Notes under the pieces: model-generated
What the model saw: only the letters and a program-made list of their open reading frames with translations
The model's database searches: none
What the model was told of the DNA's origin: nothing
Shown: positions 6,018-60,688 of the stretch, piece by piece
How positions within the stretch are numbered: position 1 is the first letter of the stretch
Layout: every line of letters begins with the position of its first letter
Translations under genes and position numbers: made by a program
Source: Leucoraja ocellata
Lineage: Eukaryota
Assembly (NCBI GenBank): GCA_036785375.1
Contig: JAWMAR010000502.1
Span: 1,116,001-1,180,000 of the forward strand
Reading direction: 5' to 3'
Length of the DNA stretch: 64,000 nucleotides

Positions 6018-7083
6018 TACACAGAAAAGCTGGAGAAACTCAGCGGGTGCAGCAGCATCTATGGAGCGAAGGAAATAGGCAACGTTTCGGGCCGAAACCC
6101 TTCTTCAGACTGATCAGGGGTGGGGGTGGGTGGGGACAAGAAAGGGAAAAGGAGGAGTAGCCGGAAGGCTGGAGGGTGGGAGGAGACAGCAGGGGAGCTG
6201 AGGAAGGGGAGGAGACAGCAAGGACTAACAGAATTGGGAGAAGTCGATGTTCATGCCCCCGGGGTGCAGACTCCCCAAACGGAATATGAGGTGCTGTTCC
6301 TCCAATTTCCGGTGCTGCTCGCTGTGGCCATGGAGGAGACCCAGGACAGAGAGGTCAGAGGCGGAGTGGGAGGGGGAGTTGAAGTGCTGAGCCACCGGGA
6401 GGTCAGCTAGGTTATTGCGGACCGAGCGGAGGTGTTCGGCGAAACGATCGCCCAACCTCCGCTTGGTCTCACCGATATAGATCTGCTGACATCTAGAGCA
6501 GCGGACGCAATAGATGAGGTTGGAAGAGATGCAGGTAAACCTCTGTCGCACCTGGAACGATTGCTTGGGTCCCTGAAAGGAGTTGAGGGGGGAGGTAAAG
6601 GGACAAGTGTTGCATCTGCTGCGGCCGCAAGGGAAAGTGCCCGGGGAGGGGGTGGACCGAGAGGGAAGGGAAGAATTGACAAGGGAGTTATGGAGGGAGC
6701 GGTCTTTGCGGAAGGCAGATATGGGGGGAGATGGGAAGATGTGGCTAGTAGTGGGGTCACGTTGGAGGTGGCGAAACTGACGGAGGATTATTTTTTGTAT
6801 GTGATGGCTGGTGGGGTGAAAGGTGAGGACTAGGGGGACTCGGCCCTTGTTGCGAGTGCGGGGATGGGGAGAGAGAGCAGTGTTGCGGGGTATGGAAGAG
6901 ACCCTGGTGCGAGCCTCATTTATGGTGGAGGAGGGGAACCCCCGTTCCCTGAATAGTGAGGACATTTCAGATGTCCTGGTGTGGAACGCCTCATCCGTGG
7001 AGCAGATGCGACGTAGACGGAGGAATTGGGAGTAGGGGATGGAGTCCTTACAGGAAGCAGGGTGGGAAGAAGTGTAGTCCAGA
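6018..7083 (-). mobile_element. Young 5'-truncated Neptune-type Penelope-like retroelement (RT thumb, Cys linker, GIY-YIG endonuclease, terminal repeat)
   Basis: ORF 6225-6965 has a CGRSRCNTC linker and LIYCVRCSRCQQIYIGET...RFAEH...AQHF...EEQHLI. 15-bp TSD TGAAGACAGATAGGT at 6003-6017 and 7084-7098. Confidence 0.92.
6077..6112 (-). ncRNA. Minimal type I hammerhead ribozyme motif in the PLE terminal repeat
   Basis: CAGT-CTGAAGA-A-GGGT(TTCG)GCCC-GAAA-CG-TT-GCC: CUGANGA and GAAA core boxes, stem II with a UUCG loop, palindromic AACGTT in place of stem III. Activity not shown. Confidence 0.72.
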
Positions 7084-8004
7084 TGAAGACAGATAGGTCA
7101 GTATGGGAATGGGAAGTGGATTGGAAAAGGCGTGCAACCAGGAAGTCAGGATGGCCACTGCGGACAGAGTACAGGTGTTCCATAAAATAGTCACTAATAG
7201 TTGATTGGTCAAGCTGATGTAGAGAGCACTGAATGCAGGAGATAAAATTAAAGGAGGTGCATTTGAACCTTCGCCTGACCTGGTTGGCTCCCTGGTTGGT
7301 GGAGAGGGTGGAGATATAGAGACCCCCCGTTATTAAAATTGTAGATATTGTAATCTTATTATGTAACATATATGGTGATGTGATTTTAATTTTGATAATC
7401 TTTGTATTAAACTGTATTAAAGATTATTTCAGTACATAACTTTGAAAGTGTCCTACTTTTCTGCTAAATAATGGACAAATTATTGAAAAATATTATCAAA
7501 GCTGATCCGATTGAAAAAGCGCTTTCACTAGAATCAAGAGGTTTAGTTCCTTGTGAAATGGCTCAATCAAGGCACAATACTCCCGTTGTTATGCTGATTA
7601 AACCACTCACAACATAGCGCACCAGTTGGAAAAAATTTACACAACAAGATCACTCGGTCAATTGAATCACTTGAGAATGGCTTTCCACGATAGTCTACAT
7701 GGAATAAATTCTCAATAACTCATCATTTGAGACCCAGGGGCATCAAATGAATATGCAAATATTCCAAGATAAAAAGTTATATGACAGTTTTGAACGTTCA
7801 TTTAGGTTCCGAAGAAAACTAAAATACACTAAAGATTTGATCACATGTTAAAAAAGTAGAGATCTTGGCAATCTCTGTTAATGCTGTCATCTCTTTGAAT
7901 GTAATAGGATGCTCGCCCAATTATATTTTTGATAACAGCGACACCTTGCATTTATATATGTTAAATATCAGACATTATCCCAAGATTCACATGGGCCATG
8001 TTAG

Positions 8005-8790: not shown

Positions 8791-8976
8791 TCAAGGATGA
8801 TTTATTCCACCTTTTGCTCCAAAGATTCAGAGAAGACTGATGAGGCCAAAGAGGGAACCACAGTCTCTGCCAGAAATGAGGCTGTGGATGCTTGATGGAG
8901 CAGGTGGATCAGGAGCTGGGAAGGTCATGTGTTTTTTCCAGCATTTACATTGAGCATTCATGTGCTTCTAACAAAT

Positions 8977-9705
8977 TAGATTAGATTAGATTCCTTTATT
9001 GTCATTCAGACCTTTCGTTGCCTGCAGTCATACATCTAATAATAAATAACAAAACATACAATAAACACAAATTAACATCCACCACAGTGAGTTCACCAGG
9101 CACCTCCTCACTGTGATGGAGGCAAAAGTCTTAGTCTCTGTCTCTTCCCTCCTTGTACTCCCTCTGCGCTGAGTCGGATCCAGGCCAAAGATGCCGTCCT
9201 CCAGTCCAGCGGACCTCCGAAGTGATGCCGCTGCCACCTCAGCTCCGAGTTGGGCCGCTGCCGAAAGCTGGAACGCTGCCTCAGCTAGGCGGGCTCCACC
9301 GCCTCAGCTCCGAGTCGGGCCGCTGCCGAAAGGTGGAACGCCGCCTCAGCTAGGCGGGCCGCCGCCACCTCAGCTCCGAGTCACGCAGCCTCAACTCCGA
9401 GTCGGGCCACCGCCGCATCAGCCCCGAAGTCGGCCAGCCTAGTCCTGGCTGGCTCTGACTATGGAGCCACGAGGTCGGTCGCAGTTGGAAACCGCCAGCT
9501 CCGCCATTAGGCCTTAGCGCAGATGGAGGCAGAGAAGGCGGATATGGAAAGAAAAAGTTGCATTTCCCCCACCCCACCCCACACACATAACACAACCTAA
9601 TAAACTAAAATTTAACTAAAACAAGACAAAAAAACAACAACAAAAAAGTAAAAACAGACGGACTGCAGGCGAGCCGCAGCTGATCAACAGCGGCGTCACT
9701 TACGG
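8977..9705 (-). mobile_element. GC-rich non-tRNA retroposon, copy A (hairpin family, TGACAATAAA tail)
   Basis: TSD ACAAAT at 8971-8976 and 9706-9711. 5' motif GCGGCTCGCCTGCAGTCCGT is shared with copy B; hairpin at 9078-9120; (TCTAA)n tail; internal CCTCAGCTCCGAGTCGGGCC repeats. Confidence 0.8.
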
Positions 9706-16075: not shown

Positions 16076-17111
16076 TCCTTTTTCCGGAAGTGGCGGCGCT
16101 GCCCTGGCAGCAGCGGCTCGCCTGCAGTCCGTTGGTTTTTACTTTTTTGTATTGTTTTTTTTCGTTTTTGTCTAGTTATGTTTTTGGTTTTTAGGCTGTG
16201 TTTATGTGGGGAGGGGGGTGGGGGGTGAAACGGGGGCTGCTGTCACTCCCTTCGGGGGAATACGACCTTTTTGTCGTATCCCCCTTCTTTGCCTCCATCT
16301 ACACTGAGGCCTAGCGGAGCCGGCGACCTCGGGACTCTGGAGGCAGCTTACAGGACTCATCCTGGGCTCGCTCCTGGCCCAGCCCGGGATGGAACGGTGC
16401 TCCCGTGAGAGCGGCATGGTGAGGGGCTGGAGTGGCCCAGCCCGAGGGAGGAACGGCACTCCCGTCGGAGTGGCCCAGCCCGAGGGAGGAACGGCACTCC
16501 CGCTGGAGTGGCCCAGCCTGAGGGAGGAACGGCACTCCCGTCGGAGTGGCCCAGCCCGAGGGAGGAATGGCACTCCCGTCGGAGTGGCCCAGCCTGAGGG
16601 AGGAATGGCACTCCCGCTGGAGTGGCCCAGCCCGAGGGAGGAACGGCACTCCTGCTGGAGTGGCCCAGCCGAGGGAGGAACGGTACTCACGTGAGGGCGA
16701 TCCGGTCCGGAGGCTGGGACGACGTTCTGGCGGCGGTGTCCAGAGTCCTGGGTTCAGCCGCGGGCCGGCGGCTGCGTGTGCTGGACTGGAGGTGCGGCGG
16801 CTTCGACCACCCCGGGCCGCAGTGTTTCAACCGGCCCGTTCGCGGGGTTCGGTGAGCTGCGGGACTGTTTGTACCATCGCCCGGTGGGGAATCGCCTCAG
16901 CGCAGAGGGAGCAGAGGGAGAGACTGCAACCCTAAGATTTTTGCCTCCACCACAGTGAGGAGGTGTTTGGAGGACTCACTGTGGTGGAAGTTAATTTGTG
17001 TTTATTGTTGTTATTATTGTATCATTGTATGTATGACTGCAGGCACGAAATTCCGTTCAGACCGTAAGGTCTGAATGACAATAAAGGAAATTCAATTCAA
17101 TTCAATTCAAT
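16076..17111 (+). mobile_element. GC-rich non-tRNA retroposon, copy B (apparently full length)
   Basis: Starts TTCCGGAAGTGGCGGCGC. Hairpins at 16254-16284 and 16946-16988; 3' stem TTCAGACC-GTAA-GGTCTGAA, then TGACAATAAA and (ATTCA)n. TSD TCAACC. Confidence 0.82.
16429..16690 (+). repeat. 38-bp minisatellite, about 7 copies
   Basis: Unit GGAGTGGCCCAGCCCGAGGGAGGAACGGCACTCCCGTC starts at 16429, 16467, 16505, 16543, 16581, 16619 and 16657. Confidence 0.92.
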
Positions 17112-17721
17112 TCAACCCACTAGGACCTCCTGGCGACCCACCTACAGCACGAGAATTCTCGCAACTCTCCATGGCGGCTTCATTATAGTCGCCGCTAATT
17201 TTTCAACATGTTGAAAACTTTGCGGCGACCATAATGAGGCTGCAACTAGTTCCCAGAAATCGGGAACTTCTCACGACCATGAAGGCAACTCCCCGGCAAC
17301 CACCCGCGAACATGTGGCAACCATGTGGCGACTGCATAGTCTCCTGCAGTCGCCTAAAAAGTTGCCTAAGTGGGACAGGCCCATAAGTTTAATGCCCTAC
17401 TAAATATAAAATTCTTATTGCTGTGAATTGGTTAGGCACTGGAAACATTCTTGATTGCCACACTTTTACTACTGTTCTTTCAACTGGATTAGGAATGGAG
17501 ACTACATACTTTAAGTTTCTGCTGATTAGAGATACATCGAAATACCATTTTTGTGGTGCCTACTTTAATGTTATCATTTTCCTGAAGATGTTTTCACTAT
17601 GAAAATTAAACTATGCTTCCTACTCTACCACATTACGTACATTTTGTTTTGTCTTTTCATTTTTGACTTTGCCTTCCTTTGAGTCTCAGACCTTGCAGAA
17701 GTATCACTCAATGGCCATTTA

Positions 17722-18619: not shown

Positions 18620-20345
18620 CAAGAGTCACAAGAGACAACAGATGATGTAAATTTGAGCAAAAAAACAAACCGCTTGAGACAAAAGGTTAGTTTATATTTT
18701 GGGTCGAGGCCCTACATCAGGAGTTTAGAGGGGAGATAGTGACCAGAGAGAGTAGAGAGGGAGGAGTGGCAGGCAATGTGGAACCAGATGAAGAGGGAGA
18801 AGGCAGGTTGATGGAGCCAGTTGGAGAATGTAGACACAGGGACTGTAAAGTGATACGTGGAAATACAAGACGCTTTAGACAAGGAATCTGGTAAGTAAGG
18901 AAGGTGATACGTGGAACAAACGAGGGAGGATTGATGGACAGTGACCATTTGAGGGCGAGGATGGGAGATGCAGTAGACATAGTATGTGAGTGTATGACAT
19001 TGCCTTGGCCTCAGTCCACATACCTGCCTTCCAACAGCCCCAACCCCCATCCTTGCTGTCTGTTCACCATCCCCCCTGACCTCCCCCTTTCGGATACCGA
19101 ATGGCCTGTCCTCAGCAGAGGCCTCACATTTGTTCCCCTCCAACCCCACCTCAATGAGTTCTGCGTTTGCCACGATGTGGAGCTCTTCTTCCGTCGCCTC
19201 TGCCTCAAAGCGTTCTTCCATGGGAAGGAGTCCTCGCCCCCCAGTGATGACCCCTTCTCCTGTCTCCAATGGACCCCCTCCTCTTGGACTCCCCCTCATG
19301 GCCATCTACCGGCTTTAGACCTTATTATTTTAAACTGCCGGAGGGACATCAACCGCCTCAACTTCTCCACTCCCCTGTCTCACTCTAACCTCTCACCCCC
19401 TCAACGTACAGCCCTCCACTCACTCTGCAACAACCCAGACTGGGTGATCAAACCCGCCGACAAGGGAGGTGCCATGGTAGTCTGGCGCGCTGATCTCAAC
19501 AAGGCTGAGGCCACGTGCCAACTCTCAGACACCTCCTCCTACTTATCCTTGGAACACAACCCCACAGACGAGCACCAGGCCTCTATCTCCTGCACTACCA
19601 CTGACTTCATCACTTCCGGCTTGCTGCTTTCCCAAGCCTCCAACCTCATCGTTCCTCAGCCCCGCACGGCACGATTTTACCTTCTCTCCAAAATCCATAA
19701 TCCTGACTGTCCTGGCAGACCCATTGTCCCTGCCTATTCATGCCCTACCGAAATTATTTCCACATACATCGACTACATCCTTTCCCCCCTGGTTAAATCC
19801 TTCCCTACCTATGTTCACACGCTCTTCGTCTACTCCAGGACTTCAGTTTTCTAGGCCCTCATTCCCTCATCTTCACCATGGATGTCCAGTCAATCTACAC
19901 CTCTATCCCCTACCAGGAGGGTCTTAACTCCCTCCATTTCGTCCTCGACCGCAGAACCAACCAATCCCCGTCTACTGATACTCTCCTCCGCCTGGCGGAA
20001 CTGGTCCTTACCCTTAACAACTTTTTGTTTGACTCCTTCCATTTCCTCCAAATACAAGGCATAGCTTTGGACACGAGCATGGGCCCTAGCTATGCCTGCC
20101 TCCTTGTAGGGTACGTTGAACAATCTTTGGTCGAGGCGCACCAGAGCCCTATCCTCAAACTCTACCTCCGCTACATCGACGACTGCGTTGATGCTACCTC
20201 CTGCACCCACACACGAGTCACTGACCATCCATTTCACACTAACTTCCATCCAGCATTCAAATACACCTGGACCATTTCCGACATTTCCCTACCATTTCTC
20301 GACCTCATTATCTCCATCGCAGGTGGTGGACTACTGACCGACATC
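18620..20345 (+). mobile_element. Penelope-like element RT region (pseudogenised) preceded by an inverted terminal repeat
   Basis: ORFs 18904-19854 and 19878-20345 contain IKPADKGG, KIHNPDCPGRPIV, MDVQSIYTSIP, MGPSYA and YLRYIDD. Degenerate hammerhead on minus at about 18690-18722. Confidence 0.88.
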
Positions 20346-20346
20346 A

Positions 20347-23300
20347 GGATCGGATTTAACCTTAGATTTGTGTTACGCAATACTATTCTTGGAAGAATTC
20401 GGTGAAGGGTGTCCATGTCTTGAAAAATTGATCTGGTTTTTCTGCCAAGACAAGCCTAATGTTTTCCAAATGTAGTGTCTCGTACATGTTTGTAATCCAT
20501 ATCTTCACTGCAGGGACTGTTGGTTGTTTCCAAAATTTAAGTATTAATTTTTTCGCCGTTATCAGGCCATTGTTAAGGAAACGTCTGAAATAGTGCTGGC
20601 TTAGAAAAGGCTTCTGACATACCTAATGTGATCAATGTTATGTCGGGGTTCAATTTTAGAAAATATATCAAAAATTCCCCTCCAGAAGTTGTGTAATTTT
20701 GTACAGGAAGCAAAGGAATGGGTTATGGTTGGAGGAGACATTTATCACAAATAGGGGAGACATTTGGGAAGATCTTATTCAATTTAGACTTTGAGTAATA
20801 AAGTCTATGCAGTATTTTAAATAGAATTAGCGAGTGCCTAACATTAAGAGAAACGTTGTGTATATATAGAAGGCTTTCCTCCCAACTATCTTTTAAAATT
20901 GTTAGACCCAGTTCACCTTCCCAAGCTCGCCTAATTATTTCCGACGATGGAGTTTGTAATTTTAAAAGGGTATTATAAAGGTACGATTTTAACTTATTTG
21001 AATCCGACTTTCTATTCATGCATTCATCTAGTAAATCTGGAACCATATATTAACAGTCTTGTGTATGTGATTTCACATAGTCTCGTATTTGAAGATATCT
21101 AAAGTATTGGCTACCTTTCAGATGATATTTCGACTGTAATTCTTGAAATGAGAGGAGAGTCCCCATCTCATAAAGGTCTCCCAGCTTTTTAATTCCTAAG
21201 CTTTCCCATTGTACACACGCCTTGTCTAAAGTAGACGGTTTAAACGAGGGATTATTGGCGATTAGAGGAGAGATAAATTTCTCAATTTGAGGGTTGATTT
21301 CAACTGTTTCCAGATTCATAAGGTGATATGGATTATCGGGTTTTTCTCATACGTTGAATTCTTCAGATTTATTGGAGAAAGAATCGCACCTATATTGAAA
21401 GGCAAACAATCTTCCCTCTCCATATTTAGCCAGTTTACTTGTTGGCATGTATCGTCCATCCAATAAATTAAATTTTTAATGTTCGTTGCCCAGCAATAGT
21501 AAAAAAATTAGGGAAAACCAGTCCGCTGATTTCTTTAGGTTTGCATAAATGTCCTTTGTGAATTCTGTGAGTTTTATAATCCCAGATAAAGTTTGTAATT
21601 GCAGAATCGTTTTTTTGGGAGAAAATCGGTATTGATTAAAATAGGTACAGGATTTGTGGAAGGAAAATCATCTTTATGGCATTTATTCTACCTATAAGGG
21701 AGATCGGAAGTGTTTTCCAAAATTGAATAAGGGCATTTAATTTGGTGATTAATGGTGGAAAATCTGCTTGAAATAAAGAGGAGTATTTTCTAATCACGTA
21801 AATTCCAAGATATTTAAATGTTTCCGAAGTAATTCTAAAGGGAAATTTTAGAAGGTGTGTTGGGTCCTGAGGTTTTATCGACATAATTTCACTTTTGTTC
21901 CAGTTTATTCCATACCCTGAAAAGGAGCTAAATTCTTCTATAAGATTTAGTATGTTTGTAATATTAAGTTGGGAGTTGGTAATATATAATAGTACATCGT
22001 CTGCATACAACGATATCTTATTATTCGAATATTTAATATTATAGCCGTGAATGTTCAGATGTACTCTTATACTTTCAGCTAAGGGTTCAATTGCAAGGGC
22101 AAATAACAGTGGTGATAATGCACACCCTTGTCTATTGCCCCTGGCTAATTGAAATTTAGGTGAGAGTGTTTGATTAGTCAGTATTCTGGCAGTCGGCTTG
22201 TTATATAACAACTTTATCCATGAAATAAAATTTTCTCCTAGTTGAAATTTTTGCAATACTATGAAGAGATATTCCCATTCTACTTGGTCGAATGCTTTTT
22301 CTGCATCTAATGAAATGATTGATAAGTCTTCTTTTATCGTTCTATGCGAGTACATTATATAAAACAGGCGTCTCAAGTTATTGAACGAGTGTCTTGAGTA
22401 TAAACCCAGTTTGATTAGGGTGTATTAATTTTCTAACATATTTAGTCTTCTTGCCAGAGTTTTAGCTAATATTTTCTGGTCTGTATTTAGAAGAGCTATT
22501 GCTCTATATGATCCTGGCTCATCGAGATCTTTATCTTTTTTGGGTGTCTGTGTGATAGTTGATTCGGCTAAAGTTTGTGGTAGCGTCAGTTCTTTAAATG
22601 CGTGTATATAAAGGGCTTGTAAATGAGGAGAGATTAATTCATGATTTTTTTAATAAAATTTGTTATAAACCCATCTGGGCCTGGCGTTTTACCATTATTC
22701 AGTGATTTAATAGTCTCTTCAATGTCTTTTATTGTGATCTGCGCTCCTAGTTCTTCATGTTCCGCCGCATTAAGTGACGGAAGATTGCAATTGTCAAGGA
22801 AGATTTTAATCTTTATTGTTTCTTCGGAAGTTTTAGATGTGTATACATTTTGATAGAATTGTAAAAATCCTTCATTGATATCTTTAGGGAGTGTAAACAA
22901 CTCACCTTTTTCTGATTTAATTTTTTGAATGGTATGATCTTTTTCCATTTTTCTCTCTGGCGTGCCAGAAGTTTGTGCAGTTTATCACCGAATTCAAAGT
23001 TTTTTGGCTTAGTATTTTGAAATAACTTGATAACTCTTGCAGAGATAATTTGATTTAACTTGAATTTTAATACTGCTATCTTATTATGTTTATCCATAGA
23101 AGGATCAGTAGCATTTTCTGAATCAATCTGTCTAATCTGTTCTTCTAATTCCAATTGTTCCGTCCTATTCTTTTTATTTTGATATGCTTGATATGAGATA
23201 ATAGAACCTCTAATAAAGGCCTTAAAAGATTTCCATAATAACGAGGCCGAAATACCTGGTGTGTCATTTATCTCACAAAATAATTCCATCTGTTGCTTCA

Positions 23301-23447
23301 AATATTCACAGCAAACTGGGTTGGTTAATATTGGAGGATTAAATCTCCAGAACATTTTTTTATTGTACATTTCTTCTAATTTTAAGGAGAATGTTAAAGG
23401 GCAATGATCAGAAATAATATTATTATGATATTTGGGATTTGTTGTTG
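20347..23447 (-). mobile_element. L1-clade LINE ORF2 (5'-truncated, frameshifted)
   Basis: End of the APE domain (ISDHCP), WRFNP, GKTPGPDG, LDAEKAFD, GNRQGCALSPLLF, LYADD and C-terminal SPICDKC. Confidence 0.92.
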
Positions 23448-23559
23448 GATCCTCTATCCTCTACCACACCCGTTTCTATTTACCCATCATCTCTCCCTTA
23501 CTTCATTCCAATTATTACTTCCTTACTTATCAGTTTCCAGTATCTTGTGTTGACATTTA

Positions 23560-32885: not shown

Positions 32886-33347
32886 GCAGAAAGAACTCAT
32901 TAACTGAGGAATTCACTTTCTTTTTATTCCATCTACTGTAATGAATTCTTCAGTTAGGATTTATTGCTGGTGTGAGAAAATTACATTCAAGACATTTTCA
33001 TCCGTCATTTATGTAAATCATAAACAATAGAGGTCCCAGCATTGATCTCTGTAGACTGGTCACAGACTTCCAGCCAGAATAACACACTTCTACTCTTACT
33101 CTTTTAGGAGTAAACCCATTCTGAATCCAAACTACAAGTCACTGTGGTCCCATTCATCTTAATCTTCTCCATCAGCCTACCATGAGGCACCTTCTCAAAT
33201 ACCTTACTAAACTCCATGTAGACTGCATCCACTCCACTCCCACTCCAAGTACAATTGCTAGCTTCTCTAAAAACTCAAATTCATAAGACGCCGTGCCCTA
33301 CACAAAAGCCATGCTGACAGTCCCCAAGAGACCTATTCTCTTCCGGA

Positions 33348-33856
33348 CTGCATCTGCTGCTCTAGATGTCAGCTGATCTACATCAGTGAGACTAAGCGGA
33401 GGTTGGGCGATCGTTCAGTCCGCAAGAACCTACCTGACCTCCCGGTGGCTCAGCACTTCAACTCCCCCTCCCATTCCCAATCCGACCTCTCTGTCCTGGG
33501 TCTCCTCCATTGCCAGAGTGAGCAACACAGGAAATTGGAGGAACAGCACCTCATATTCCGCTTGGGGAGCCTGCATCCGGCGGGCATGAACATTGAATTC
33601 TCCCAATTTTGTTAGCCCTTGCTGTCTCCTCCCCTTCCTTAGCCCTTGAGCTGTCTCCTCCCATCCCCCAGCCCTCGGGCTCCTCCTTCTCCTTTCTCCT
33701 TCCTTCTCCCCGCCACCCCCTATCAGTCTGAAGAAGGGTTTCGGCCCGAAACATTATCTATTTCCTTCGCTCCATAGATGCTGCTGCACCCGCTGAGTTT
33801 CTCCAGCATTTTTTTGTATCTTCGATTTTCCAGCATCTGCAGCTCCTTCTTGAACA
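33348..33856 (+). mobile_element. 5'-truncated PLE (GIY-YIG end plus terminal repeat with hammerhead at 33724-33760) inserted in an old CR1
   Basis: 14-bp TSD TATTCTCTTCCGGA at 33334-33347 and 33857-33870; encodes LPVAQHFNSPSH...EEQHLIFRLG. Confidence 0.9.
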
Positions 33857-36969: not shown

Positions 36970-37360
36970 CGAGTCATAGAGTGATATAGTGTGGAAACAG
37001 GCCCTTCGGCCCAACCTGCCCACACATTCGCCAACATATCCCAGCTACAATAGCCCCACCTGCCCGTGTTTGGTCCATATCCCTCCAAACCTGTCCTATC
37101 CATGTACCTATCTAACTGTTTCTTAAACATTGAGATAGCCCAGCCTTAACTGGTAACTTGTTCCATATATCCACCACCTTTTGTGGGGAAGCAAATTACC
37201 CCTTAGATTCCAATTAAATATTTTCCCCTACATCTATGTCCTCTGGTCCTCGATTCACCTACTCTGGGCAAGAGACTCTGTGCATTTACCTGATCTATTC
37301 CTCTCATGATTTTATACACCTCTATAAGATCACCCCTTATCCTCCCAAGTCCCAGCCTAC
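36970..37360 (-). mobile_element. CR1 LINE 3' end
   Basis: RGDLIEVYKIMRGID...TRGHR and FKKQLDRYM. Confidence 0.88.
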
Positions 37361-37361
37361 A

Positions 37362-38180
37362 CAACAGACAGGAAGTGCCACAGCTGGCGTCCTGGTGCCA
37401 TAGCAACAACCTCAAGCTCAATGCTCTTAAAACAGTGGAACTAATTGTAGACTTTAGGAGAGCTCCCCCTCCCCTCAGCCCACTCACCATCAACAACACC
37501 ACAGTCACATCTGTGGAGTCTTTTAAGTTCCTGGGAACCCATCATCTCCAAGGACCATAAGTGGGGGGCTACCATCAACTCTACAGTCAAAAAGGCACAA
37601 CAGAGGATGTACTTCCTGTGGCAGCTGAGGAAGCACAATCTGACATAGGCAATGATGGTCCAATTCTACACGGCCATCGTGGAGACTGTTCTCACCTTCT
37701 CCATCATGGTCTGGTTTGGCTCAGCCACCAAGCACGACACCTGGAGGCTGCAGCGAATCAGCCGATCAGCAGAGAAGATTATTGGCTGCAACCTTCCCTC
37801 CATTGATGAAGTGAACACTGCAAGGGCCAGGAAGCGAGCAGGCAAGATCATCTCTGACCCCTCTCACCCTGGCCACAAACTCTTTGAATCACTTCCCTCT
37901 GGAAGACTGTCAAAGCTGCCACAGCCAGACATAAAAACAGTTTTTATCCACGAGTAGTTGCTCTACTCAACAGCCAAAAACCTGTAACCTCCCTTTGATC
38001 TGGTATTTTGTTGGTTCACATGCTTGATCAATGGTGTTTTATCATTCATGTTTTATTAATGTTTAGTGTTTTCTGAGTCATCCGTAACTGTCACTGTATG
38101 TCATATTATTACTTGTGGGTGGAGCACCAAGACAGCTTCCTTGTATGTGAATACTTGGCCAATAAACTTACTTACTTACT
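37362..38180 (+). mobile_element. Rex1/Babar LINE 3' portion, CTTGGCCAATAAA/(CTTA)n subfamily
   Basis: QLASWCHSNNLKLNALKTVELIVDFRR and FYTAIVETVLTFSIMVWFG...DPSHPGHKLF. Confidence 0.88.
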
Positions 38181-39049
38181 CCTTCCGGTGGGCGGCGCGG
38201 CTCTGGCCAGCAGCGGCCTCTGCAGTCTGTCCGCGTTTTATTATTTTCTGTCTGTGTTTTAATGTAGTTTTTGTTATTTTTTGTTGGGGTGTGTGTGTGG
38301 GGGGGTGGGGGTGGGGTGGGAGGTGGGGGGGGGAAAACTTTTTAAATCTCTCCCTGCACTGGAGACCCGACCTTTTCTCGTCGGGTTTCCGTTGTCGTTG
38401 GGGCCGCAACGAGGAGCGGCCTCCAACAGGAAGAAGCCGGGGACTCTGGTGCTACAACTCACCGTCGCCGTCGCGGGGCTGGCAGAGTCCGGAGCGGGTG
38501 GAGCGGTGGAGGAGCGCTGATGCTGCTGCTGCTGCGGCCCGACCGGAGAGTCGGAGGCCCCAACAACAGGTCTGTGGACGGCGGCACCGGGAGCCCGCGG
38601 CTCCCTGGAGGGAGACCGCTTTTCAGGGCTCTCGCAACGGCGACTTCCCCCGCCCGAGTTGCGGGGTTGAAGAGCTCCTGGAGCGGGGCCTAACATCACT
38701 GCCCCGCGCGGCTGGGAATGGCCGCGGGACTCTGCGAGCGCACGCCGGGGGCTCTAATACCAAGACCCGGTGTGCGACCTCGCACCACCCGGCGTGGCTT
38801 AAATGGCCGCGGGACAATTGCCATCGCCAGCCAGGGGCTTTGACTCTGACTCTGACATCGGGGGGGGGAGAGTGCAGTGGAGAGATAAGTTTATTTGGCC
38901 TTCCATCACAGCGATGTGATGGATGTTTATGTAAATTATGTTGTGTCTTGGGTCTATGTGTTTGTAATGTATGGCTGCAGAAACGGCATTTCGTTTGGAC
39001 CTCAAGGGGTCCAAATGACAATAAATGTATCTTATCTTATCTTATCTTA
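38181..39049 (+). mobile_element. GC-rich non-tRNA retroposon, copy C
   Basis: Starts CCTTCCGGTGGGCGGCGC. Hairpins at 38361-38390 and 38902-38923; 3' stem TTTGGACC...GGTCCAAA, then TGACAATAAA and (CTTAT)n. Confidence 0.8.
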
Positions 39050-41139: not shown

Positions 41140-42000
41140 CCTTGCGTGTCACTGATGGGGATGTCAGAATATAGAAGAGAGATCGAGCAACTGTCCATAT
41201 GGTGCCAGCGCAATAAACTGGCCCTCAACACCAGCAAAACCAAGGAACTGATTGTGGACTTTGGAAGGAGTAGGAGGGGGACCCACAGCCCCATTTATAT
41301 CAACGGGTTGAAAGGGTCAAGAACTTCAAATTTCTGGGCGTGCACATCTCTGAAGATCTTTCCTGGTCCGAGAACACTAATGTAATTATCAAAAAAGCTC
41401 ATCAGCGCCTCTACTTCCTGAGAAGATTACGGAGAGTCGGTTTGTCAAGGAAGATTCTCTCTAACTTCTACAGGTGCACAGTCGAGAGCATGCTGACCGG
41501 TTGCATCGTGGCTTGGTTTGGCAATTTGAGCGCCCTGGAGAGGAAAAGACTGCAAAAAGTAGTAAACACTGCCCAGTCCATCATCGGCTCTGACCTCCCT
41601 TCCATCAAGGGGATTTATCGCAGTCGCTGCCTCAAAAAGGCTGGTAGTATCATCAAAGACCCACACCATCCTGGCCACACACTCATCTCCCTGCTACCTT
41701 CAGGTAGAAGGTACAGGAGCCTGAAGACTGCAACAAACAGGTTCAGGAATAGCTGCTTCCCCACAGCCATCAGGCTATTAAATCTGGCTCGGACAAAACT
41801 CTGATTATTAATAACCACTTTCTGTTATTTGCACTTTACCAGTTTATTTATTCATGTGTGTATATATTTATATCAGGGTATATGGACATATTTATCTGTT
41901 TTGTAGTAAATGCCTACTATTTTCTGTGTGCTTAAGCAAAGCAAGAATTTCATTGTCCTATACAGGGACACATGACAATAAACTCACTTGAACTTGAACT
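41140..42000 (+). mobile_element. Rex1/Babar LINE 3' portion (young)
   Basis: ORF 41340-41804 (KKAHQRLYFLRRLRR...PSGRRYRSLK); (CTTGAA)n tail. Confidence 0.92.
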
Positions 42001-48286: not shown

Positions 48287-51200
48287 GAGTCAAGAGTCAT
48301 GAGAGTTTTATTGTCATGTGGCCCAGATAGCACAAATAAATTCTTACTTGCTGCAGCACAACAGAATATGTAAACATAGTACAGTACGGGAGATAAAGTT
48401 CAGTGTGTCTATAGACCGTAGACCATATATATACATAATAAATAAACAGATAAAGTGCAATAGTAATAATAGACTTATTGTTCAGAGTTTATTTGATGTA
48501 ATGTTTAATACCCTGATGGCTGTGGGAAAGAAGCTGTTCCTGAACCTGGATGTTACAGATTTCAGGCTCCTGTACCTTCTTCCTGATCGCAACGGAGAGA
48601 TGAGTGTGTGGCCAGGATGGTGTGGGTCTTTGATGATGCTGGCAGTCTTTTTGAGGCAGCGACTGCGATAGCTCCCTCCGATGGTGGGGAGGTCAGAACC
48701 GGTGATGGACTGGGCAGTGGTCACAACTTTCTGCAGTCTTTTCTGCTCCTGGACGTTCAAGTTGCCGTACCAGGCCACGATGCAACCAGTCAGTATGCTC
48801 TCTACTGTGCATCTGTAGAAGTTCGGGAGATCCCTCCTTGACATACCGACTCTCCGTAATCTTCTCAGGAAGTAGAGGTGCTGATTACATATTTCCACCA
48901 ATAAGGACAGACTGTGGCCTGTACATGAGGAAGTTGTGGATCCAATTGCAGAGGGTGCGCAGAGACCCAGATCCGTGACCTTGGTAACCAGCTTGGAGGG
49001 GATGATGGTATTAAACGCCGAGCTGTAGTCTATGAACAACTCCGCCGCCTCCGCGCATTCCATTCTCTAGGCCCTCAACCCTTCATCTTCACCATGGACG
49101 TCCAGTCACTCTACACCTCCATCCCCCACCAGGATGGTCTCAAAGCCCTCCGGTTCTTCCTCGACCAGAGGAGCAACGTATACCCGGCCACTGACACTCT
49201 CCTCCGCCTAGCGGAGCTGGTCCTTACTCTTAATAACTTCACGTTTGACTCCTCCCATTTCCTCCAAACACAAGGCGTAGCTATGGGCACACGTATGGGC
49301 CCCAGCTACGCCTGCCTCTTTTTCGGGTACGTTGAACAATCCTTGTTCAATACGTACCAGGGCCCCATCCCCGACCTCTACCTCCGTTACATCGACGACT
49401 GCTTTGGTGCCACCTCCTGCACCCACACACAACTGACTGACTTCATCCACTTCACCACCAATTTCCATCCGGCACTCAAATACACCTGGACTATTTCCAA
49501 CACTTCCCTACCATTCCTTGACCTATCTCCATCGCAGGTGATAGACTCCTGACCGACATCCACTACAAACCCACTGACTCCCATGGCTATCTGGACTACA
49601 CTTCTTCCCACCCTGCTTCCTGTAAGGACTCCATCCCCTACTCCAAATTCCTCCGTCTACGCCGCATCTGCTCCCAGGATGAGGCGTTCCACACCAGGGC
49701 ATCTGAAATGTCCTAATTCTTCAGGGAACGGGGGGGTTCCCCTCCTCCACCATAGATGGGGCTCGCACCAGGGTCTCTTCCATACCCCGCAACACAGCTC
49801 TCTCTCTCCATCCCCGCACTCGCAACAAGGGCAGAGTCCCCCTAGTCCTCACCTTTCACCCCACCAGCCGTCACATACAACAAGTAATCCTCCGTCAGTT
49901 TCGCCACTTCCAACGTGACCCCACCACTCGCCACATCTTCCCATCTCCTCCCATGTCTGCCTTCCGCAAAGACCACTCCCTCCGCAACTCCCTTATCAAT
50001 TCTTCCCTTCCCTTCCGTACCACCCCTTCCCCGGGCACTTTCCGTTGCAACCGCAAGAAATGCAACACCTGTCCCTTCACCTCCCCCCTCGACTCCATTC
50101 AAGGACAAAAGCAGTCGTTCCAAGGGCGACAGAGATTCACCTGTATCTCCTCCAACCTCATCTACTGCATCCGCTGCTCTAGATGTCAGCTGATCTACAT
50201 CGGTGAGACTAAGCGGAGGTTGGGCGATCGTTTCGCCGAACACCTCCGCTCGGTCCGCAAGAACCTACCTGACCTCCCGGTGGCTCAGCACTTCAACGCC
50301 CCCTCCCACTCCCCAGATGACCTCTCTGTCCTGGGTCTCCTCCATGGCCAGAGTGAGCAACACTGGAAATTGGAGGAACAGCACCTCATATTCCGCTTGG
50401 GGAGTCTGCATCCTGATGGCATGAACATTGAATTCTCCCAATTTTGTTAGCCCTTGCTGTCTCCTCCCCTTCCTCAGCCCTCGGGCTGTCTCCTCCCATT
50501 CCTCAGCCCCCGGGCTCCTCCTCCTCCTTTTTCCTTCCTTCTCCCCGCCACCCCCTATCAGTCTGAAGAAGGGTTTCGGCCCGAAACATTGCCTATTTCC
50601 TTCGCTCCATAGATGCTGCTGCACCCGTTGAGTTTCTCCAGCATTTTTGTGTACCGTCTATGAACAAAAGCCTGACATACGAGTTTTTGTTGTCCAAGTG
50701 GTCCAGAGCGGAGTGGAGAGCCAGTGAGATTGCATCTATTGTTGCCTGTTGTGGCAGTAAGTGAACTGCAGTGGGTCGAGGTTCTTGTCTGGCACCGAGG
50801 TTCTTGTCTGGAACTCTGGCACTGGCCACTAAATCAGCTGCCCTGGACTTTTTATGACTGTTTTTACTGTATTTAATGTTGCTGTTTTTACCTGCACTTA
50901 TTAACTATTCGTACTGTTTTATCAGGGACTGGATTGTTTTTATTGTTTTTATTATGTGTGAAATGTTTAAGTTTTATGTGCGATGCTCCGGTATTCCCTG
51001 AGAAACGTCTTCTCATTTTGCACTGTACACTGCTTTGCAAGATGACAATAAAGGTTGATTGATTGATTGTCGAGGTAGAAGTTGATATGCGCCATAATCA
51101 ACCTCTCAAAGCACTTCATCACCACAGACGTTAGTGCCACTGGTTGATAGTCGTTGAGGCACGTCACCTTGCTCTTCTTGGGCACCGGGATTATTGATGC

Positions 51201-55387: not shown

Positions 55388-57019
55388 TTCACACTGGCTT
55401 CTGCAAATGCCGTAATCTATTTGATAATTCTGCAGATGTTTCTTTACCTATTGGTTGCACTTCCTCTTTTTTCTTTAGGTTAATACCAAAAATGATTGAA
55501 TTCCATGTCAAAACATGTTGTTTGCTACATTCCAAAATTTGTGTAGCAATCTATCTATCTTTCTCTATCTATGGCGTTCACTCCAACTCGGGGTTGAGTG
55601 GTGTCATCTGCTTCATGATGTCCTGGTGCTGTGTTAGCCATTCATCATCATGCAGTTTCACTTATAAGTAAGCTAGGCGGATGAGCAGTCCTCTCCTAGC
55701 AAGAAAGAAATAACACAATACATAACAGAATTCAACATAAAACATAAACATCCACCACAGTGGAACCAGCACCCGCTGTGGTGGAAGGCACAGTCAATCT
55801 TCCCCCTCCGTTCACCTGTGGTCGGGGTTGTGAACCCTCTGCAGTCGCCGCTACGGATGGCCCGATGTACAAGCCCTCTCGCCAGGGTGATCGAAACTCC
55901 GACATGGGGACGGATCGGAACACTCTGAGACGTGGAATTCCCAAATCGACCTCTTCCTACCGGAAACCGCGGCTTCATGATGCCAAGACCACAGGCCCCG
56001 CGGTCGGAGCACTTCTTCTCGCGTTCCTTGGCAAAGGATTGCAGGCAGCTCAACGATGTTAATGTCCACGCAGCCCCCATGGCTAGAAGCTCCACAGACT
56101 GATCTCCATGCTGGTAAAGTCAGCAGGCCCCCAGCGGTCGGAGCTCCAACCCCCGGCAAAGGATCGCAGCTCCGCTATGTTACAGTCCACGCTGCGCCCG
56201 CTGCTGAAGTTCTGGGCTCTGGGTCAGTCTCTGGTCGGAAAGGCCGCACCAATCCAGTTGGTAGGCCACGAGGGGGGCGAAAATGCGACATGGAGAACAG
56301 TCGCATCTCCGTCGAGGTAAGTGACTGGGAACGGTTTCCCCTATTACCCCCCAGCACCCCCAACACAAGACACACTGGGAGGCGTACATTCAGACATGCT
56401 GAAAACAACAACACACGGGCTGCTGGTGAGGCTGCCGCGCACAACGCCATCTTGGTGCCTTTAACCAGAAATTTGTATTGTATTTGCTAAAGGTATAAAT
56501 CCGTGCAACATGAACCAGTCTCTCAATTACTGTGATATACCATGAAGTGACAGCTCACCACTCAAACAAAATGCTAAAGCTCCCTTTGCTGTTAACAGAA
56601 TTCCTGAGAAAGCCTTTAACTGCCTACATAGCCTCAAACCAGTTGGGTCTGCCATCGAGAAAGATAAGTAGCAGGTACATCCGAACACTCAACAAGATAA
56701 ATTTGCTTTTCCCATCTTTTTCAGAATGTCCCAAAGACTTTTGCAGTCAATGAAGTACTTTTTGAAGATCAATCTTTGTTGTAGGAAATCTGACAGCCAA
56801 TTTCTTTTAGAGTTAACCACAAAGAGCAACATGATAGTGATCACAGAATTGCAACTATTGATTGAGAGGACTGTCGGCCACAAAGCCAGGTATAAAGAAT
56901 GTTGTTGAAATGATAACAGATAGGTGGATCAAAGATATGGTTACCTGACAATTATTAATTTGTACATCATTGAAGAAAGCAACTCAGCACTTGCTGCATT
57001 GATATATCTTTGGTTCAGT
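55388..57019 (+). repeat. Segmental duplication B, copy 2, split by retroposon copy D
   Basis: Colinear with copy 1; the core 56509-56738 is nearly identical to 47838-48067. Confidence 0.9.
55551..56452 (-). mobile_element. GC-rich non-tRNA retroposon, copy D (different 3' tail)
   Basis: Starts at a YY1-like AAGATGGCG. Hairpins at 56279-56310 and 55751-55785; (TAGA)n tail. Absent from the paralogous site at about 47780. Confidence 0.78.
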
Positions 57020-57049: not shown

Positions 57050-57700
57050 CTCTTGGTTCTTGGTCCCCCAAAATATTCCAAATGGAATTTAAACTGGAGG
57101 TGGTGGAGGGAGGACTTGCCAGAATGGGTTATTGGGAAGAAAGAGCTACTTTAAATTTAGTTGCATCTGGTTGGGTAACTATAGTAGGGTGAAGATTATT
57201 CCATGCTTTAATTGTGCGGGGGAAGAACGAATTGCTGTACACATCTGTCTTTGTAGCTGGGATCACAAATTACCAGTCGAGCTGACCATTTAACATTTTG
57301 TAAAAACAGGTCAAACGGTGAGCTTCACGTCTGTCTTGGAGAGGGTTCCGCCACAGTGAATTCAGAAGTTTGGTAACACTCGCTTCTCTCTGATAGGTGT
57401 TAGTAACAAATCGAGCTGCCTGTCTTTGGACACGTTCGATGGAAGAAATGGTTTTATTTGTGTATGGGTCCCATGCTGCAACTGCGTAGTCCAAATGAGG
57501 TCTAACGAGGGTAAAGTATAGCTTCTCCTTGACAGAAGTTGAACAATGATGAAAGTTGCGCCTCAGAAAATTTAGGACACCTGTTGCTTTCACCGTTGCA
57601 TGATGAGTCTGACCATTCCAACGCAAATCATTCTGCAATTTGATGCCAAGATAGTTGGTTTGTTTGGGTTCTTCAAGGGTGGCACCAAGTATATTGTACA
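57050..57700 (-). mobile_element. CR1-group LINE 3' fragment of an invertebrate-like lineage
   Basis: YLGIKLQNDLRW...LVRPHLDYAVAAWDPY...ERVQRQAARFV...YSNSFFPRTIKAWNNL; (CCAAGAA)n tail. Confidence 0.8.
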
Positions 57701-57789
57701 ATGGCACTCCAGAGACTTGAGTAAAAAACAAGAGGGTACTAAACTGACAGTGATGGCATACTTTGATGTTATATATTAACAAATATCTG

Positions 57790-58249
57790 CCTATTATCTT
57801 CGGGGAAAGTGCAGGCCACCAATTTCAAATGCAATTTCATACCATTTCAAGCAGAGTGCAGGCTACCAATTCATTTAATTTCAAGCAGAGTTGAGTTCAC
57901 TCACGGTGTAGACTCACAGTTCTGGACTCAATTCTCACTCACAATCCCCCATGGTGACTGACTCATTTCCGGCCTCCGGGGCTTTATACTCCTGGCCGCC
58001 CAGAAGGGGCGTTACCTTCATCATGGTGATTGACAGGAGAGAGGACCAATCAGCTGATCTCAAGCTTTTTTAAACATTGATAACTTTTTATTTTTCATCG
58101 ATGGGAAAAAGCCTCAGGGCTGCCTCAGCGGAGGGGGACTGTGAGTAAAATGGCAAAAAATCATAGAGGGATATATGGTAGCATTATTTCTAAAATTAAT
58201 ATACAGCACAGACAGGAAGTGATCAAGACGAGACTTTTAGTTATATAGA
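57790..58249 (-). mobile_element. Possible non-autonomous Helitron 5' portion
   Basis: Minus strand starts A|TCTATATAACTAAAAGTC (TC start after A); 3' end not seen. Confidence 0.4.
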
Positions 58250-59630: not shown

Positions 59631-60474
59631 ACTTCATAAAATGTAAATATTTGCAAGGGGTAAGCAAGGGGTCAATGTCTTTAAACTGGAACATTTAAAG
59701 AGCTTTGTGCTCCTTAACTCATAGAGCGGTTAGTGACTAGCTCACTTTATTGTCACCATGTCAAAAACCTAACTGCAGCAATGCCGTTTTCACAATATAA
59801 TGGAATTACACTAATAAAATCACCCTTTAATGAGAGGCAGCAATGCCACACAAGGTAGGCATACACATTCAGGGCCAAATTACCTAAGTTGGCTACATCC
59901 TGTCAATGGCTCGCAACTGAGATAGTCCTGCACAATGATTTTTTTTTTTTTTTAAAGGTGTTAGAAAGATTGGCCATGCCAAATCTGTTGCAAGGACAGC
60001 ATCAACCAGCACAGGTAATCAACTGGGTTGAATTTACTGATGGAGAGAATTCAGCTCATGTCAAGCTATTACAGCACATCACTGTGACGGACACAGTACA
60101 AGAAACAGAAATCATCATCTAACCCACGTTAACTGTAAGAGGGAACATTGACATCAACTTGCCATGGCATATTTCACAAACTCTAAATGTGGAAACTGAT
60201 GGACGATCTCCAGAGCAGACACGGCAAGGGCGGCAAGGGTGACACAGCAGTAGATTGTTGCCTACAATACTTGCAGCGCCAGAGACCTGGGTTCAATCCT
60301 GGCTACAGGTGCTGTCTGTACAGAGTTTGTACGTTCTCCCTGCGACTGCTTTTTCCACACAGAGGGTGGTAGATATATGGAACAAGCTGCCAGAGGATGT
60401 ATGTGAGACATCCCAAAGACATTTGGACAGGTACATGGATATGAAAGGCTTAGCAGGATATGGTCCAAATGCAG

Positions 60475-60688
60475 TCAGGTTGGATTTTAAAGAAGGGAAG
60501 AGATTGAACTTTTTTTTCGCCTTCCATCACAGTGAGGAAATGTGGAGGAGTCACTGTGGTGGATGTTTATGTTAAAATGTATTTTGTGTGTTCTGTTGCT
60601 TTTTATTTGTATGACTGACTTGGCAAATGAAATTCTTCATATGTTGCAAAACAAACTTGGCTAATAAAGTAGTATTGCATTGTATTGT
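60475..60688 (+). mobile_element. GC-rich retroposon family, 5'-truncated copy E inside a SINE/CR1 remnant
   Basis: TSD AAATGCAG at 60467-60474 and 60689-60696; hairpin at 60523-60563; tail CTTGGCTAATAAA + (TATTG)n. Confidence 0.8.

Follow-up and report, generated by a model that had tools for sequence, protein, structure and literature searches.

A probable superfamily of non-coding retroposons with two covarying hairpins and mostly Rex1-type tails in Leucoraja ocellata

The analysed window, a stretch of 64,000 nucleotides of Leucoraja ocellata, harbors five insertions (A to E), which represent five different families of one superfamily. All five are present where an earlier note on this DNA had placed them, and a pattern for the second hairpin matches the window exactly five times, once per insert. 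The elements show a shared plan, consisting of a head, a T-rich tract, a G-rich tract, hairpin 1, a GC-rich body, a purine-rich tract, hairpin 2, a TG-rich tract, and a tail. Copy B (16084..17115, plus strand, as are all its parts) is a full-length member of a young family and is found in both haplotigs. Its start had been set at 16076; the insert was recovered, with the family start about 8 nt downstream. Its CpG-rich head (16084..16131) has a sharp 5' boundary, begins with what we take to be an ETS-like motif, and likely acts as an internal pol II promoter. It is followed by a T-rich tract with runs of 5-8 T and then a G-rich tract (16132..16227), by hairpin 1 (16254..16284; fold z -3.63 for 16226-16345), which covaries across lineages, and by a GC-rich VNTR (16429..16692) with seven copies of a 38-bp unit. 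Hairpin 2 (16946..16988; z -3.62 for 16900-17010) is flanked by a purine-rich tract on its 5' side and a TG-rich tract on its 3' side. The element ends in a Rex1/Babar-type tail (17040..17115; z -3.28) composed of a stem-loop (17056-17075), a poly(A)-signal-like hexamer, and a pentamer microsatellite (17089-17115).

Copy A (8975..9705, minus strand) belongs to a sister lineage of B and has lost parts of hairpin 1 and of the tail stem; its hairpin 2 was located by pattern match at 9078-9120, and a 65-bp internal repeat occupies 9227-9382 (both minus). Copy C (38183..39048, plus strand), from another young family, is an insertion polymorphism with a blunt junction and carries hairpin 1 at 38361-38390 and hairpin 2 at 38902-38923 (both plus). 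Copy D (55551..56455, minus strand) stems from an old family with a YY1-like start; hairpin 1 (56279-56310), hairpin 2 (55751-55785), and a tail that is not of Rex1 type (55551-55700) lie on the same strand. Copy E (60475..60688, plus strand) is 5'-truncated, retains hairpin 2 (60523-60563, plus), and has a tail type that also ends Rex1 family B. For B, C, and D the earlier reading of the hairpin-1 arms was confirmed, A having lost part of them, and hairpin 2 indeed has a 14-bp stem and a 15-nt loop in B and a tetraloop in C. The common plan proposed for all copies likewise held, with the refinement that the tail of D is not of Rex1 type.

The window contains many Rex1/Babar fragments: PF09004, presumably a Rex1 marker, was found in three of the five frames tested. 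One 5'-truncated copy of Rex1 family B (37354..38180, plus strand) has no hairpin 2 in its 3' UTR, and copy C is inserted just behind its microsatellite tail; a 5'-truncated copy of family A (41274..41995, plus strand) matches PF09004. Further repeats comprise fragments with endonuclease and reverse transcriptase frames (20723-23460, minus), which we take to be L1/Tx1-like LINEs, and four presumably Penelope-like fragments with reverse transcriptase and GIY-YIG-like frames (6225-7097, minus; 18895-20405, 33271-33615, and 48929-50450, all plus). A segment at 57270-57824 (minus) is presumably the 3' fragment of an L2/Crack/Daphne-like LINE, and one at 60225-60350 (plus), upstream of copy E, is taken to be an HE1-like tRNA-SINE fragment.

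The families were followed through the 3.44-Gb vertebrate assembly, which holds two haplotigs in places. For the 5' part of B, 40 of 3292 candidates were scored, and all 40 match at 97-100% identity. Thirty B loci, which include four duplicate pairs and so amount to about 26 sites, were compared: 29 share the 5' boundary with unrelated flanks, most end in the pentamer microsatellite, and 27 measure 907-1171 bp. The 38-bp unit occurs in 4-11 copies across 27 B elements, and a GC-rich VNTR was seen only in the lineages of A and B. Scored matches of C (among 3820 candidates) reach 95-100% identity, with the 5' boundary shared and flanks unrelated in most of 28 loci (of 30), and those of D lie mostly at 72-83%. 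Families B and C are young and family D is old.

In four arbitrary 200-kb blocks (800 kb), the hairpin-2 profile gave 29 matches and the hairpin-1 profile 26, of which 20 are paired with hairpin 2; most of the nine hairpin-2 matches without hairpin 1 look as 5' truncation predicts. A strict hairpin-2-related pattern matched 26 times in 864 kb vs 3, 6, and 6 times in shuffles. This density of about one copy per 28 kb corresponds to roughly 120,000 copies in the assembly if the four blocks are typical. When 144 paired elements were grouped by body, 27 clusters resulted, 23 of them single copies. The bodies of the five inserts, earlier called barely alignable, do not align with one another, but this does not extend to the wider set, where 16 of the 27 clusters are joined by partial body alignment via intermediate lineages; the families of A and B stand apart. 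Local duplications are abundant in element bodies. Short forms without most of the body or without hairpin 1 occur at one site each (L022:2842-3150, L208:165-480, L249:1250-1645). A second head-like sequence directly 3' of hairpin 2 (L048:233-400, plus; L136:5450-5654, minus) suggests, from its arrangement, a dimeric or composite lineage. At six of 12 U1 snRNA gene loci (L222, L226, L228-L231) a C-like element lies about 1.3 kb upstream on the same strand, probably as part of a repeated U1 unit.

The other haplotig of the region, contig C186 (98.3% identity over 115.6 kb), contains A, B, D, and E. C is absent from it, and its flanks meet there in a blunt junction sharing no more than one letter. 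Another C-like copy, which lies 20.7 kb upstream of the window, is likewise polymorphic and missing from C186. Conversely, a 1336-bp Rex1-type fragment with a near-blunt junction lies inside hairpin 2 of D (window ~55755) in C186 only. The superfamily is recently mobile. Target duplication is absent at the empty site of C (one empty site), and none is evident by eye at the family loci compared; neither a poly(A) tail nor an L1-type target duplication was found, the elements showing microsatellite tails and the blunt empty site instead. The 5' truncation, the microsatellite tails, the Rex1-type 3' ends, the haplotig empty site, and the missing conserved ORF support the earlier classification as a non-autonomous retroposon. 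As to coding capacity, no ATG frame is conserved, in line with the earlier finding of no credible ORF. The longest ATG frame varies from 47 to 238 aa across 27 B copies, and 63 of 73 body indels in B are out of frame. In C, a 41-aa ATG frame is found in 13 of 28 copies, and the length of 15 of 21 body indels is divisible by three, which probably reflects a trinucleotide run. A 351-aa stop-to-stop frame over C was rejected, as no conserved ATG frame matches it.

Rex1/Babar elements are very abundant in the genome (118,239 and 144,076 candidates). Their 3' ends consist of a stem-loop, a poly(A)-signal-like hexamer, and a microsatellite, in agreement with the conserved 3' UTR and oligonucleotide repeat described in the available portion of PMC6274825, and most element tails have the same form. 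Three of 25 element-tail clusters match a Rex1 tail at 0.80 vs a baseline of 0.69; the remaining clusters match at 0.64-0.76, near that baseline. No LINE with an exact B- or C-type tail was found, none of 86 tail-profile matches lying behind a Rex1 ORF. The shared tail form makes Rex1/Babar (as at 41274..41995) the likely partner LINE class, but with 0/86 matches attached to a Rex1 ORF the assignment holds for the clade and not for the exact partner families of B and C. Thirty loci of the D family comprise 15 with the non-Rex1 tail, 11 with a Rex1 tail, and two that are interrupted or tailless (28 of the 30 loci are covered). As judged by eye, the D family shows tail exchange under a shared body; this claim rests on the D-family loci, the head and tail labels from loose patterns being partly wrong (L326, L082, L071). 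A search with the D tail returned 147 candidates, with hairpin 2 upstream in 20 of 30 loci and a LINE ORF attached in none of the 30. The tail of one further lineage (L170:7985-8150) looks, on our assumption, L2-type and is possibly that of a third partner clade.

Both hairpins covary across lineages. In an alignment of 42 lineage representatives made by sequence alone (A1), the 12-bp stem of hairpin 1 shows double changes at 11 of 12 pairs, in 40 cells vs 19.5 after shuffling (0/500 shuffles as high). The number of pairs with a change is a weaker statistic, reached by 24/500 shuffles. On a tree built from non-stem columns, with seven misaligned A/B-lineage rows left out (35/42 rows), nine same-branch compensatory events in 8 of 12 pairs compare with 0.92 expected (0/5000); with all 42 rows, eight events compare with 1.10. 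For hairpin 2, pairing reaches 95.8% across 43 representatives, five of 12 pairs show double changes (15 cells vs 4.4), and the tree test, with a degenerate null (mean 0), counts six same-branch events. On the raw alignment A1, which includes decayed copies and misaligned rows, RNAalifold predicted no shared fold, and single-copy folds form both stems (z -0.85 to -3.67). Despite the missing consensus fold, the covariation of both hairpins supports the earlier view that the RNA structure is under selection. Pairing of the hairpin-1 loop with its own 5' arm is unsupported (1 event vs 0.20; 987/5000). A role of the hairpin-2 5' arm as splice acceptor was also discarded: RNA depth is continuous across 16956, and no cluster of loose ends lies there among those listed. 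Self-cleavage, which the earlier note had suggested for the hairpin regions, found no support from ribozyme motifs: an HDV-like core occurs in 0/120 elements vs 1-6 in shuffles and a hammerhead core in 3/120 vs 0-2, both at the level of shuffled sequence, with no Rfam match for either.

Regarding transcription, none of the five copies contains a pol III A or B box, as the earlier note had stated. ARAGORN detected no tRNA gene in the window, Rfam gave no match at gathering score and chance matches only at E-value thresholds, and neither program revealed a small-RNA head (tRNA, 7SL, 5S). Since all five copies have T-runs of 4-8 within the first 200 nt and the boxes are missing, pol III is unlikely, an argument from internal T-runs that is likewise used to exclude pol III for SINEU in the available part of PMC4494074. 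To this extent the previous assignment to pol II is supported, and a start at the element's own 5' end is reasonably likely. A bacterial promoter scan, irrelevant to this DNA, yielded nothing. RNA reads come from two other, related organisms, cover sister families, and are mostly 90-95% alike. In the X21 poly(A) reads the sense direction prevails by about 16:1 in the 5' part and by about 4:1 at hairpin 2; over hairpin 2, a bias of about 5-8:1 in one direction is also seen in X22 and X23. In X23 hairpin 1 favors the opposite direction from the 3' part, and X24 has no strand bias. The reads show transcription, not self-initiation.

The heads differ between lineages in the first 7-10 nt. Around a shared GC core, the D1 head is YY1-like and the A and B heads are ETS-like, and the heads of several deep lineages start CTCF-like (L083:1420-1470, L085:1425-1470, L122:6190-6240, and other old lineages), the names CTCF and ETS being our own assignment. 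The D lineage and full-length Rex1-A share the same first 12 letters, 11 of which match, by eye, the reverse complement of the mouse L1 YY1 site as given in the accessible section of PMC11602158; according to the same section, YY1 dictates the position of the transcription start of human L1.

Several other explanations have to be weighed against transcription of a selected RNA from the element's own head. The elements could have no promoter of their own and be read through from host or neighboring promoters, their sharp 5' end being due to processing or to a founder copy. This would fit the reads, in which no pile-up of RNA starts was seen at the element 5' end and 310 X21 reads continue upstream of 16091, as well as the lineage-specific first letters of the heads. 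It is nevertheless rather unlikely, as one boundary within unrelated flanks, in B and in most C loci alike, calls for a start that the element itself sets, a search for ribozyme motifs found none, and the observed/expected CpG ratio reaches 0.72-0.86 in A-D compared with 0.44 across the window. Hairpins that arose neutrally through inverted duplication, or that act as DNA structures and are not selected as RNA, would agree with bodies full of local duplications, with the RNAalifold result, and with copies that have no hairpin 1. The same-branch compensatory changes far above the null, the tolerance of many G-U-type pairs, and stems that persist while loops range from 4 to ~23 nt make this improbable. 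Still less credence can be given to the idea that the hairpin-1 region goes back to a segment of U1 snRNA that has since decayed, which would make the elements internal-U1 relatives of SINEU. By eye, about ten letters before hairpin 1 equal the U1 5' end in one D sub-lineage and the stem spacing resembles stem-loop I, but Rfam U1 has no match at E up to 5-10, alignment to the U1 of the same genome stays at shuffle level for most copies, and U1 receives no score from the hairpin-1 profile, unlike some of its shuffled versions; a U1 origin was therefore rejected.

The elements might instead be bipartite and have arisen by internal deletion from a Rex1 family, extinct or not sampled, that carried both hairpins in long UTRs, the link having been blurred by tail swaps. 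The first ~45 nt of the head resemble Rex1 5' ends by eye, the tails are Rex1-type, and LINE UTRs have been proposed to seed SINE bodies (in the excerpt of PMC5786205). Full-length Rex1 5' ends were available for two families (L097, L100, L104, L122, L127, L133, L135; L314-L320), in which the endonuclease frame is preceded by ~400 nt in family A and by ~250 nt in family B, whose 5' end has a GC-rich start followed by a TG-rich tract. Neither hairpin profile matches any of nine Rex1-A 5' UTRs (best E 0.6), neither hairpin occurs in five complete Rex1-B 5' ends, and a Rex1-A 5' UTR profile misses all 120 elements (best E 2.5). Of 126 Rex1 ORF ends, a single one (L108) has hairpin 2 within 450 nt, owing to a nested insertion, and a similar case (L247/L249) proved to be an insertion with its own head. 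Thus, LINE UTRs holding both hairpins, the case named earlier as refuting, did not turn up in two full-length Rex1 families and 126 Rex1 3' ends; as the hairpins are absent from 14 Rex1 5' ends and 125/126 Rex1 3' ends, a simple deletion derivative is unsupported. Because most Rex1 families (29 tail clusters, two families seen full length) have not been seen at full length, the derivative origin retains a small probability, on a par with that of read-through.

The most probable explanation is a superfamily of non-coding elements, 0.7-1.2 kb long, that is old, has many branches, and was recently mobile; its members are likely transcribed by pol II from their own CpG-rich head and likely copied by a Rex1/Babar protein. 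Within it, the class assignment is held with the greatest confidence, and pol II transcription from the own promoter is reasonably likely. A GC-rich head with a YY1-, ETS-, or CTCF-like site would start the pol II transcript at nucleotide 1. The stem-loop, hexamer, and microsatellite of the tail would mimic the 3' end of Rex1, whose endonuclease/reverse transcriptase may then perform target-primed reverse transcription without a target duplication. Hairpin 2, together with the purine- and TG-rich tracts on either side, precedes the tail by about 100 nt and might be an RNA module for capturing the LINE protein in trans, of benefit to a non-translated RNA and kept through tail swaps; this capture role is put forward tentatively and is the less probable part of the scheme. 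Hairpin 1 may serve transcript stability or export at the 5' end, and the body between the hairpins would be a loosely constrained spacer that drifts and gains tandem repeats.

Compared with known systems, and as far as the consulted excerpts of the cited papers go, the superfamily resembles Sadhu of Arabidopsis, which is ~900 bp long, non-coding, and LINE-mobilised, with a poly(A) tail, 7-16-bp target duplications, and 39 related sequences (PMC2848041). Shared traits are the non-coding ~900 bp, no small-RNA head, no pol III boxes, a conserved 5' motif followed by a pyrimidine-rich tract, and divergent subfamilies. The present superfamily differs in its Rex1-type stem-loop/microsatellite tails, in the lack of a duplication at one empty site, in its two covarying hairpins, and in its density (~1 copy per 28 kb vs the 39 Sadhu sequences); no homology is claimed. 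With the hominid SVA (PMC10681720) it shares a non-autonomous composite make-up, a variable GC-rich VNTR (here in families A and B), and a pol II-type mode, SVA being dependent on pol II and L1 (PMC4494074). Unlike in SVA, inspection by eye revealed no hexamer, Alu-like, or SINE-R parts, and there is no poly(A); the partner is likely Rex1 instead of L1, and many deep lineages stand against one young SVA family. By analogy, the superfamily appears to work like Sadhu and SVA and is a member of neither.

Bipartite ORF-less LINEs (RIME, NARTc, Bov-A, RTESINE, R2 SIDE) have LINE-like 5' and 3' ends; in the excerpt of PMC5786205 only RTE, Ingi, Vingi, and R2 are listed as sources as of 2018, and further RTE-type examples are given in part of PMC7245038. 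The elements described here likewise have no coding capacity, and their head resembles a LINE 5' end by eye while most tails have the Rex1 form. Their partner is likely Rex1, but the sampled Rex1 UTRs contain no counterpart of several hundred nucleotides of the interior, both hairpins among them. A conserved internal domain combined with exchanged LINE tails is also known from CORE, V, Deu, and Ceph SINEs and the chondrichthyan HE1, SacSINE1, and CmiSINE (portions of PMC5499810 and PMC3747384). Those SINEs begin with a tRNA or 5S head containing pol III boxes, of which the superfamily has neither, and the chondrichthyan SINEs are described as tRNA-headed (excerpts of PMC5499810, PMC3747384, PMC2746220). 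The sole Rex1-paired SINE in the covered portion of the table in PMC3747384 is a sea anemone tRNA SINE. SINEU of crocodilians resembles the superfamily in being non-pol III, in its internal oligo-T, and in an unresolved transcription mode, but has U1/U2 heads and Tx1 partners (part of PMC4494074); U1 homology is unsupported here, and Rfam scans gave no match to a U2-derived head.

No published description of the superfamily was found in the open literature, and an unclassified Repbase/Dfam consensus may well exist; as a class, it is probably undescribed. Whether it amounts in full to an undescribed vertebrate retroposon class of ~100,000 copies, with no small-RNA head, a pol II head drifting between CTCF-, YY1-, and ETS-like forms, a two-hairpin cassette parasitising Rex1, tail swaps between LINE clades, and ongoing insertion, is a reading we hold with slightly more doubt than confidence. 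Few non-autonomous retroposons fall outside both the pol III SINEs and the plain LINE deletions (SVA, Sadhu, SINEU). As the stems can be broken and rescued, the Rex1-linked, covarying hairpins offer a testable case for the role of a conserved SINE-body domain. The polymorphic recent copies are a source of structural variation and of markers, and if the heads bind CTCF, YY1, or ETS factors, the superfamily could have spread regulatory sites genome-wide.
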